11,552 nucleotides of DNA from a virus (lineage: Duplodnaviria > Heunggongvirae > Uroviricota > Caudoviricetes), in the IMG/VR virus record IMGVR_UViG_2529293041_000008. One strand, 5' to 3'. Position 1 is the first letter of the stretch; the number at the start of each line of letters is the position of its first letter. The position numbers were made by a program, and so were the translations under genes. The notes beneath the pieces are model-generated. The model saw only the letters and a list, made by a program, of their open reading frames with translations, did not search any database and was not told where the DNA came from. Of this stretch, positions 10,605 to 11,552 are shown in pieces.

Positions 10605-10853
10605 ATGCAGCGTCTGTGTGGTTGCGGAAAGCATGATGGCCGTGAACACGTGCAGTCGCTTACAGCACAACTGCGTCTGGGGCCGGCAGACATCCTGGAG
10701 TCCGATGAGAATGGTATTATTCCGGAGCAGGACAGGGTAATCACGCAGGTGGTGATACTGGATGCAGATAAAAAGCAGATACAGTGCGTGGTAAGACCGC
10801 TGCAAATCCTGCGTGCTGACGGGGTGTGGGAAAATATTGGCGGGATGAAGTAA
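10605..10853 (+). CDS. Short ORF (82 aa) paralogous to the C-terminal domain of the upstream tail fibre; possible fibre-tip or chaperone-like module, or a remnant of a second fibre gene
   Basis: ...AQLRLGPADILESDENGIIPEQDRVITQVVILDADKKQIQCVVRPLQILRADGVWENIGG aligns with the fibre C-terminus ...[62 protein letters not shown]. An identical 14-mer CGTCTGGGGCCGGC occurs at 10364-10377 and 10674-10687. No good RBS before the ATG at 10605, so start and frame are uncertain. Followed by a terminator-like hairpin. Confidence 0.45.
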   Translation: MQRLCGCGKHDGREHVQSLTAQLRLGPADILESDENGIIPEQDRVITQVVILDADKKQIQCVVRPLQILRADGVWENIGGMK

Positions 10854-10868
10854 CCCGACAGCTTCACA

Positions 10869-10897
10869 AAACCGGAGTCCGGCTCCGGTTTTTGTTG
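10869..10897 (+). terminator. Terminator-like hairpin after the short fibre-paralog ORF
   Basis: Stem ACCGGAG (10871-10877) / CTCCGGT (10883-10889), loop TCCGG, extendable by A-T pairs, followed by TTTTGTTGT. The T tract is interrupted, so strength is uncertain. Confidence 0.5.
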
Positions 10898-11084
10898 TCA
10901 TGTCATGGTGATGTTTGTTAATGAAGGCTTGAGGGAATATTTATCCGTATGAAGGAATATGGTAATGCCTGGATTAATATCATATGTGTCATCGGCTTCA
11001 TCGTGAATGAGATGATGGAGCTGCGTCAGCAGGTAATGGAGGGGCAGATTGGTGGATTTCTCCTGGGAGGGGCTGTCTCTTATA

Positions 11085-11110
11085 CACAAATCCCCACCCG
11101 GGGATTTGTG
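11085..11110. repeat. Perfect 11-bp inverted repeat with 4-nt spacer (CACAAATCCCC-ACCC-GGGGATTTGTG) overlapping the inner part of the IS terminal repeat
   Basis: Arms 11085-11095 and 11100-11110 are exact reverse complements, read directly from the sequence. Confidence 0.8.
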
Positions 11111-11237
11111 ATGTCTGTCAGTCTGCTTTAGGGGGACTCTTTCCATCCGGTAGTTTCCTTCCTCCCCGGCAGCGATTTTTTGAACTTTTTCCTCACCCGT
11201 TGATCTTCTCTTATATTTCATTTTCTTCGGGTCTGTT

Positions 11238-11552
11238 ATGGTACTTTCTGATTGTTATTCATGGGCTAACGAGCAGTTTTGACATGCCCGTCTCGGTGAT
11301 CCGCGTCGTACACGACGCCTTGTGTCACTGGCCTCTTCTCTCGCTCAGCATGCAGGTCTTTCTATTGTGAAATCATCCCAGTCCACTGCTCAGGTTGAAG
11401 GTGCGTACCGCCTGATACGTAACCCGTCTGTGTCCCCGCAAGCCATTGCCGAAGCCGGATTTACCGCCACTGTAAGGGCATGTGAGGCTCATCCGCTGCT
11501 CCTCGCGCTGGAAGACACCACCACCATTAACTTCAGTCACAGTACGGCATCT
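11238..11552 (+). pseudogene. IS50/Tn5-like transposase N-terminal region (3' end outside window), interrupted by an in-frame TGA at codon 15 (11280-11282)
   Basis: MVLSDCYSWANEQF-TGA-HARLGDPRRTRRLVSLASSLAQHAGLSIVKSSQSTAQVEGAYRLIRNPSVSPQAIAEAGFTATVRACEAHPLLLALEDTTTINFSH aligns in frame with the Tn5 Tnp N-terminus as recalled (...DWAKSVFSSAALGDPRRTARLVNVAAQLAKYSGKSITISSEGSKAMQEGAYRFIRNPNVSAEAIRKAG...LLAIEDTTSLSYRH). The TGA falls at a sense position (Ser18 of Tn5 Tnp). Confidence 0.65.

Follow-up and report, generated by a model that had tools for sequence, protein, structure and literature searches.

The window analysed here, which comprises all 11,552 bp of draft contig AFJB01000002.1 (assembly GCA_000249175.2), ends within an insertion sequence (IS) that has entered a prophage gene. 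The features at its right-hand end are as follows:

10965–11072, + strand: 5′ fragment of a prophage nleG-family effector gene, recognized by comparison with E. coli O55:H7 CB9615, where nleG is uninterrupted.
11073–11552, + strand: left 480 bp of a copy of ISEc13 (IS4 family, IS50 group), cut by the contig end.
11073–11091, + strand: left terminal inverted repeat of the Tn5 outside-end type.
11085–11110, + strand: perfect 11-bp palindrome with a 4-nt loop, recognized by arm complementarity and fold stability and by a homologous stem-loop in 28 relatives.
11108–11175, + strand: lineage-specific insertion of ~68 bp from alignment A4, with boundaries uncertain by about 3 bp.
11176–11186, + strand: T-run (6 T) followed by TTGAACT, a block that lies next to the hairpin in the relatives.
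11202–11217, + strand: GATC (Dam) site (11202–11205) and candidate −10 element TATATT (11212–11217), from comparison of leaders.
11238–11552, + strand: 5′ part of the transposase gene, with its ATG at 11238 and a TGA at 11280–11282 (codon 15, G to T at 11280).

Window positions 11073–11552 are identical at 479 of 480 nt (99.8%) to RefSeq-annotated ISEc13 copies, and 1761 E. coli records among the complete genomes match this stretch under genes annotated "IS4-like element ISEc13 family transposase". Judged by this match, what lies here is the left (outside-end) terminus of a known and common element, together with the stretch upstream of its transposase gene; the element occurs in roughly one in three complete E. 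coli genomes. An intact ISEc13 of 1550 bp lies between mog and satP in E. coli E2348/69 (locus L001, 2501–4050), a strain with 29 ISEc13 copies, and its transposase gene begins at element position 166. An earlier note on this DNA had called the terminus IS50/Tn5-like, and this is borne out by the transposase of the intact copy, which matches the Tn5 transposase of the PDB with E = 7e-83. The DDE and YREK residues of the two proteins align, with the blocks EDTT, CDREADI, and YxxRWxIEExHKxWK. The same protein scores above the Pfam cut-offs for PF14706 (Tnp_DNA_bind, 1.4e-19) and PF01609 (DDE_Tnp_1), just under the cut-off for PF02281, and at 511 bits for NCBIfam NF033590 (IS4 family).

The copy in the window interrupts nleG about 108 nt into the gene, between TTTCTCCTGGGAGGGG and AGAGGG, at a site with only a weak hairpin. 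Its right end and target-site duplication were looked for and not found in the window, as the contig ends within the IS, and the junction between nleG and the IS occurs in no complete E. coli genome. The 8 bp preceding the element (11065–11072, GGGAGGGG) are predicted to be the target-site duplication, and the predicted right junction would read GATCAAGAGACAG followed by GGGAGGGG and AGAGGGTTAG. About position 11001, one T is missing relative to CB9615 (GGCTTCA-TCGTG), which shifts the nleG frame independently of the IS. On the minus strand, a 107-codon ORF (10898–11221) runs from the IS leader outward across the IS end into nleG; it is called as a gene in the public assembly, has no Pfam match, and is probably spurious.

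The first 105 transposase codons lie in the window. The frame from 11238 reads MVLSDCYSWANEQF up to a stop codon and then resumes as transposase, with PF14706 carried by the post-stop frame. The responsible change of GGA to TGA, which went unmentioned in the earlier note, is all that separates these 480 nt from an intact copy. Among complete E. coli genomes, none gave a perfect match to the 480 nt, and the TGA is absent from every genome that matched. The copy in the window is likely to be non-autonomous, unless the TGA represents an assembly error in a multi-copy repeat. For annotation purposes, the copy in the window should be marked as nonsense-bearing and nleG as disrupted.

The left terminal repeat, CTGTCTCTTATACACAAAT (11073–11091), agrees with the Tn5 outside end, CTGACTCTTATACACAAGT, at 17 of 19 positions, just as had been noticed before, with mismatches at positions 4 and 18; the outside-end string itself is present in a paper on Tn5 termini (PMC3347997). 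A matching repeat exists at the other end of the element as well, since the right end of intact copies, CTGTCTCTTGATCAGATCT, agrees with their own left end at 13 of 19 positions, which is the outcome that the earlier note had required of the element. This right end is identical at 19 of 19 positions to the Tn5 inside end, as it is to the corresponding end of a close IS50 variant (L005). The terminal repeats of ISEc13 are thus ~19 bp long, begin with CTG, and are of the outside-end and inside-end types, the right end having been read in L001.

Two further observations concern the ends. At the right end of the intact copy (L001, 4016–4050), the last transposase codons (...SLD/E...) pair with the inside end as an inverted repeat of 9–14 bp, for example GTCTCTTGATCAG-gagat-CTGATCAAGAGAC, at about −23 kcal/mol. 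This repeat is kept across the clade, at L001, L003, L004, L009, and L013 among many loci. Where the end has a G/C change at position 15, the inner copy shows the mirror change, and no T-run follows the repeat. In some relatives (L021, L026, L027, L032, L043, L060, L061, and L083), GG...CC occurs just outside CTGTCT...AGACAG, and the apparent duplications are 11–13 bp or imperfect. Either the true termini of these elements lie 1–3 bp further out, or their boundaries are blurred by palindromic targets.

The ATG at 11238 is element position 166, preceded by 165 nt, and RefSeq places the start of the ISEc13 transposase there. The leader is indeed longer than that of IS50, as the earlier note had stated, with 91 nt before the start codon in the close IS50 variant (L005). 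What had been described as an unusually long leader is thus real as a distance, and it is attributable not to a special, long 5′ untranslated region but to an insertion of ~68 bp upstream of a promoter-like block. The inserted segment lies between the stem-loop and the ancestral T-run in ISEc13-type elements and in a fossil of such an element in E. coli K-12, and alignment A4 shows it to be absent from relatives in Scandinavium (77%) and Pantoea (73%). ISEc13 is collinear with these two, its closest relatives without the added DNA, through the hairpin and again from the T-run/TTGAACT block to the ATG. The distance of 165 nt is therefore due to the insertion.

Possible origins of the inserted segment were also considered. 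No duplication from the downstream leader, or from elsewhere in the IS, was detectable, as local alignments were no better than those of shuffled sequences (p = 0.27). A mini-element flanked by GATTTTTTG repeats was set aside, the candidate signals consisting of one 9-mer and weak CTGYC/GCAG ends. A second stem-loop within the segment (11123–11172), tried as a terminator preceding the T-run, proved no more stable than shuffles (z = +0.29), and the T-run of ISEc13 has no significant hairpin of its own.

Downstream of the insertion, TTGAAC could serve as a −35-like hexamer, a promoter role suggested by sequence likeness. The GATC site occupies the position of the GATCNGATC block in relatives and in IS50. 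Putative assignment of TTGAAC, GATC, and TATATT to a promoter, and with it the placement of the hairpin upstream of that promoter, would follow from the conserved TTGAACT and GATC blocks. No sigma-70 promoter passed a consensus scan of the + strand of the ISEc13 leader or of those of the relatives included (L004, L009, and the K-12 fossil).

The inverted repeat reported in the earlier note is exact: its 11-bp arms, CACAAATCCCC (11085–11095) and GGGGATTTGTG (11100–11110), are 100% complementary around a 4-nt loop, and the repeat begins inside the 19-bp terminal repeat, as does the stem-loop across the clade (element position 14–16). A conserved core, AAATCCCC-ACCC-GGGGATTT (11088–11107), which starts at element position 16, can be distinguished from the outer three pairs (CAC/GTG), which are specific to ISEc13. 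As RNA, the palindrome folds at −17.5 kcal/mol (z = −5.2), none of 200 dinucleotide shuffles folds as well, and the hairpin has an ensemble frequency of 93%. It is the sole perfect 11-bp hairpin with a loop of 3–8 nt in the window, where 0.017 would be expected, against 0.0002 in 165 nt, and such a hairpin appeared in only 1% of whole-window simulations under a first-order Markov model. The palindrome is not due to chance. Nor is it absent from other copies of the element, which the earlier note had named as a refuting result: the terminal 50 nt, in which it lies, occur exactly in 1084 of 1668 matching E. coli records. Variants of ISEc13 keep the hairpin or its core stem, with a changed loop (L008), a G·U pair (L007), or a shorter stem (L090). 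An Rfam scan of 10850–11552, with E up to 1, gave no match. CRP-like half-sites (TGTGA), visible in the palindrome arms when read from the sequence, were rejected on account of their wrong order and spacing.

A protein-guided scan of one genome per species yielded 80 loci with transposase identities of 42–99%, and at least 28 relatives (about 48–77% transposase identity) possess a stem-loop at the same place in the left end. The hosts of these 28 distinct hairpin-bearing left ends include Vibrio, Photobacterium, Shewanella, Alishewanella, Xenorhabdus, Photorhabdus, Providencia, Pantoea, Scandinavium, and others. Their stem-loops consist of 10–14 pairs with energies of −7 to −22 kcal/mol, and directly 3′ of the stem there is a run of 6–9 T followed by TTGAACT, which is invariant in all 28 aligned. 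IS50 and several relatives (L006, L014–L016, L028, L044, L047, and others) are without the hairpin, among them elements of 50–56% identity (L014–L016 and L028). The hairpin must be dispensable, because these elements lack it.

The 28 left ends were aligned with a covariance model, a MAFFT alignment of the hairpin having been out of register in several rows. The outer pairs, AAAUCCC/GGGAUUU, are conserved, while each of the inner five positions shows three to six pair types. In the alignment, 95.3% of pair cells are paired, as against 76.6% in shuffles, and changes on both sides occur at nine of the 13 pairs. The covariation score was 0.515, which none of 500 shuffles reached (0.178 in shuffles), and it fell to 0.02–0.16 when partners were slid by 1–3 columns; these figures are upper estimates, being inflated both by an alignment built to fit the modelled structure and by relatedness among the sequences. 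Among wobble cells, there were 20 G·U or U·G and 3 A·C or C·A, an asymmetry that fits a selected RNA read inward, from outside into the element. Across the clade, the comparison shows the stem-loop to be a structured RNA element maintained by compensatory changes, and it identifies the palindrome of ISEc13, with high confidence, as the homologue of a putative left-end terminator.

In K-12 MG1655, a fossil left end of the ISEc13 type, 76% identical and with the same insertion, occurs at L087 1501–1681 and likewise in L088 and L089. It is located between rluA and yabQ/yabP, 35 nt downstream of rluA, is annotated as a frameshifted transposase fragment, and is present in about 1680 E. coli records. 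Its hairpin, AAATCCCCG-AGTC-CGGGGATTT, is followed by TTTGTTTCTG, and a terminator scan flags it as terminator-like. In ISEc13 proper the same tail reads GTGATGTCTG, the U-tract is gone, and the stem gains the three CAC/GTG pairs. By this comparison, the perfect 11-bp palindrome is a derived state of the 8-bp conserved core. The fossil hairpin with its U-rich tail lies 35–70 nt past the rluA stop codon, and it may serve as the present rapA–rluA terminator.

A G+C-rich stem with an immediate U-tract, as in intrinsic (Rho-independent) terminators, is found in most of the 28 relatives and in the K-12 fossil, but not in ISEc13. Here the stem is followed by AUGUCUGU, or by UUUGUGAUG when counted from the G+C core, with no immediate U-tract, and the scan did not call the hairpin a terminator. 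An approximate terminator index of the d'Aubenton-Carafa type, suitable for ranking only, gave 39–58 for six of the seven relatives scored and 0.1 for L017 of Xenorhabdus innexi. The K-12 fossil scored 48, ISEc13 a marginal 10, and its L090 variant −5. The scan also left the hairpins of relatives L004 and L009 uncalled, having extended the stem through A/U pairs so that 4 T remained in the tail, and their reading as terminators rests on counting U after the G+C core. Elsewhere in the window, a strong hairpin and T-run at 10868–10895 (AAAACCGGAG-TCCGG-CTCCGGTTTT-TGTTG) follows a gene for a tail-fibre C-terminal domain and scores 35. It looks like an intrinsic terminator and is unlisted by the scan, which probably extended the stem into the T-run.

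Together these comparisons suggest that the left end of ISEc13 carries its clade's stem-loop, that the version in the relatives is a terminator shielding the transposase, and that the version in ISEc13 is at best a weak one, a reading to which a probability of roughly 60% may be assigned. In the relatives, a terminator placed between the transposon end and the transposase promoter would stop transcripts arriving from the DNA around it, and the transposase would not be switched on when the element lands behind an active gene. In the Escherichia lineage, ~68 bp were inserted between the stem and the T-run, and the ATG came to lie 165 nt inside the element. The sequence following the stem then went from U-rich to GUGAUG in ISEc13 proper, adding three base pairs to the stem and leaving a stable stem-loop that could now act, at best, as a weak terminator or pause site. 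The last point, that the ISEc13 hairpin is at most a weak terminator or pause element, is put forward with moderate to low confidence. Counting against the reading as a whole are the tail of ISEc13 without a T-run and its marginal index, the hairpins of L004 and L009 that the scan left uncalled, the promoter scans that gave no hit, and the relatives that do without the hairpin. The terminator function of the relatives' hairpin, like any residual function in ISEc13, is proposed on the strength of the structures and their flanking sequence.

The nearest competitor is the possibility that the ISEc13 hairpin is a mere relic, i.e., a decayed terminator without present function that persists only through the youth of the ISEc13 copies (at least 94% identical), with the CAC/GTG pairs being accidental. 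This is rather unlikely, yet it merits more weight than any other alternative. Separation of the T-run from the stem by ~68 bp would be in keeping with decay, as would the low index values of ISEc13 and L090, the hairpin's passing unflagged by the scan, and the existence and spread of related elements without a hairpin. However, the core stem survives in both insertion-bearing branches, ISEc13 and the 76%-identical K-12 fossil, and every change that did away with the U-tract lengthens the stem, whose stability stays at −17.5 kcal/mol, where random decay predicts otherwise. Variants L007 and L008, moreover, differ by G·U pairs or in the loop and not by stem-breaking changes. A different kind of explanation would place the structure in the DNA, with hairpin or cruciform potential at both ends modulating end recognition or mimicking preferred hairpin targets. 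The conserved inverted repeat of 9–14 bp formed at the right end by the inside end and the last transposase codons is compatible with this, and so is insertion into loops of CCCC...GGGG-type hairpins that resemble the element's own left-end hairpin. The asymmetry between G·U and A·C cells nevertheless favours RNA, and the adjacent T-run is left unexplained. In the Tn5 synaptic complex, Tn5-type transposases are known to contact only the 19-bp ends, which also counts against a role for DNA structure, and such a role seems improbable.

Slightly less credit still is due to a duplex protein-binding site, which the earlier note had offered as one option and which would have the palindrome bind a dimeric host factor or the transposase beside the 19-bp end. 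The sequence is exactly palindromic and overlaps the transposase-binding end, and in Tn5 the host factors DnaA, Fis, and H-NS bind at or near the ends (see also PMC3347997). The inner stem and loop, however, are not conserved in sequence but change in a compensatory way, with three to six pair types per position, and the tolerance of G·U but not of A·C points to RNA copied from one strand and not to duplex DNA; a protein site is accordingly disfavoured. Least tenable of all is a fold-back of the IS10/IS50 type, in which the terminal sequence of a read-through RNA would mask the ribosome-binding site or start codon by pairing and so prevent translation of the transposase. This mechanism is established in IS10 and IS50 (bioRxiv 10.1101/2025.01.24.634351), and ISEc13 is a relative of IS50. 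The palindrome, though, is self-complementary and forms its own hairpin at the 93% ensemble frequency given above; it lies 128 nt upstream of the ATG, the start region is unpaired with the terminal sequence in minimum-energy folds of read-through RNAs, and the start-proximal segment has no significant structure (z = −1.2). The proposal of the earlier note that the hairpin limits outside-driven transposase expression is consequently retained in part: a hairpin acting on incoming transcripts fits the comparative data, but the analogy with IS10 and IS50 does not hold, since the hairpin is self-contained.

Target choice may be connected with the preferred reading of the left-end hairpin as a terminator, or former terminator. 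Target sites were read from the element flanks at loci L001, L003, L004, L013, L017, L031–L046, and L092–L096. The empty sites reconstructed for 16 distinct insertions of the hairpin clade are G+C-rich hairpins whose loop falls within the duplication; as a rule, an A-run precedes the hairpin and a T-run follows it. The sites fold with a median energy of −17.9 kcal/mol, versus −7.5 kcal/mol in 110 control windows taken from these flanks (p = 2e-8). For ISEc13, exact 8-bp duplications were found in all six insertions, located after mog, ybaY, symE, yqfB, and aaeR, and near ibsE. Five of these six sit in the loops of terminator-like hairpins; the hairpin at yqfB is weak, at −10.8 kcal/mol. Duplications are 8–10 bp in the relatives and 9 bp in IS50 (L005). 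Where the flanks are annotated, the gene preceding the left end is in most cases directed into the element.

An element that splits host terminators is each time exposed to read-through, and it would for that reason have cause to carry a terminator of its own. It is tempting to suggest, if only tentatively and with the odds somewhat against it, that the Tn5-like clade including ISEc13 prefers the loops of terminator hairpins, that its own terminator, which begins within the outside end bound by the transposase, replaces that of the host and insulates the transposase gene, and that ISEc13 is a derived, uncoupled member. The uncoupled hairpin of ISEc13 may then act as a pause site, as a stabilizer of RNA 3′ ends, or as a structure occluding the transposon end. 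A preference for terminator hairpins would affect how insertions change the expression of neighbouring genes.

The analysis accounts for what had seemed an odd-looking IS end, and it suggests that part of the IS50 group guards its transposase by a terminator, the solution known from IS200, and not by the textbook fold-back of IS10 and IS50. Three points may be new, namely, that some members of the IS50 group have a covarying left-end terminator, that this terminator has become uncoupled in ISEc13, and that terminator loops are preferred as targets. No description of them was found in the literature searched, where ISEc13 received passing mentions only, none concerned with its ends, its hairpin, or terminator targeting. 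For a strategy coupling target choice with insulation, no description was found for the IS4 family in the literature searched.

Among known elements, the closest is naturally the reference ISEc13, so named in ISfinder, which has the same end, palindrome, and start codon as the copy in the window; the latter differs by the G to T change that creates a TGA at codon 15 and by its truncation at the contig end. The ISVa18-type elements of Vibrio, with relatives in Shewanella, Pantoea, Scandinavium, and others, share with ISEc13 the terminal 22–23 bp, the hairpin position, and the TTGAACT and GATC blocks. Unlike ISEc13, they have 6–9 T straight after the hairpin and a leader of 100–106 nt, without the 68-bp insertion.

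IS50/Tn5 resembles ISEc13 in its homologous transposase, in its ends (17 of 19 positions on the left and 19 of 19 on the right), in having the transposase stop codon within the right end, and in the GATC sites at the promoter region and the inside end. It differs in lacking a left-end hairpin, in having about 91–92 nt before the start codon, and in meeting read-through by sequestering the translation start (bioRxiv 10.1101/2025.01.24.634351). Its duplications are 9 bp, as opposed to 8 bp in six of six cases for ISEc13, and its right end contains an internal direct repeat where that of ISEc13 has an inverted one.

The functional parallel is provided instead by IS200, whose left-end stem-loop (nt 12–34) is a Rho-independent terminator that shields against impinging transcription (PMC4513863). 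As in the hairpin clade, the stem-loop lies a few nucleotides inside the left end, just upstream of the region where the transposase starts. IS200 belongs to the unrelated IS200/IS605 family, with another transposition chemistry, so the likeness is one of function and not of descent; its terminator has been tested experimentally, whereas that of the ISEc13 clade is read from sequence.
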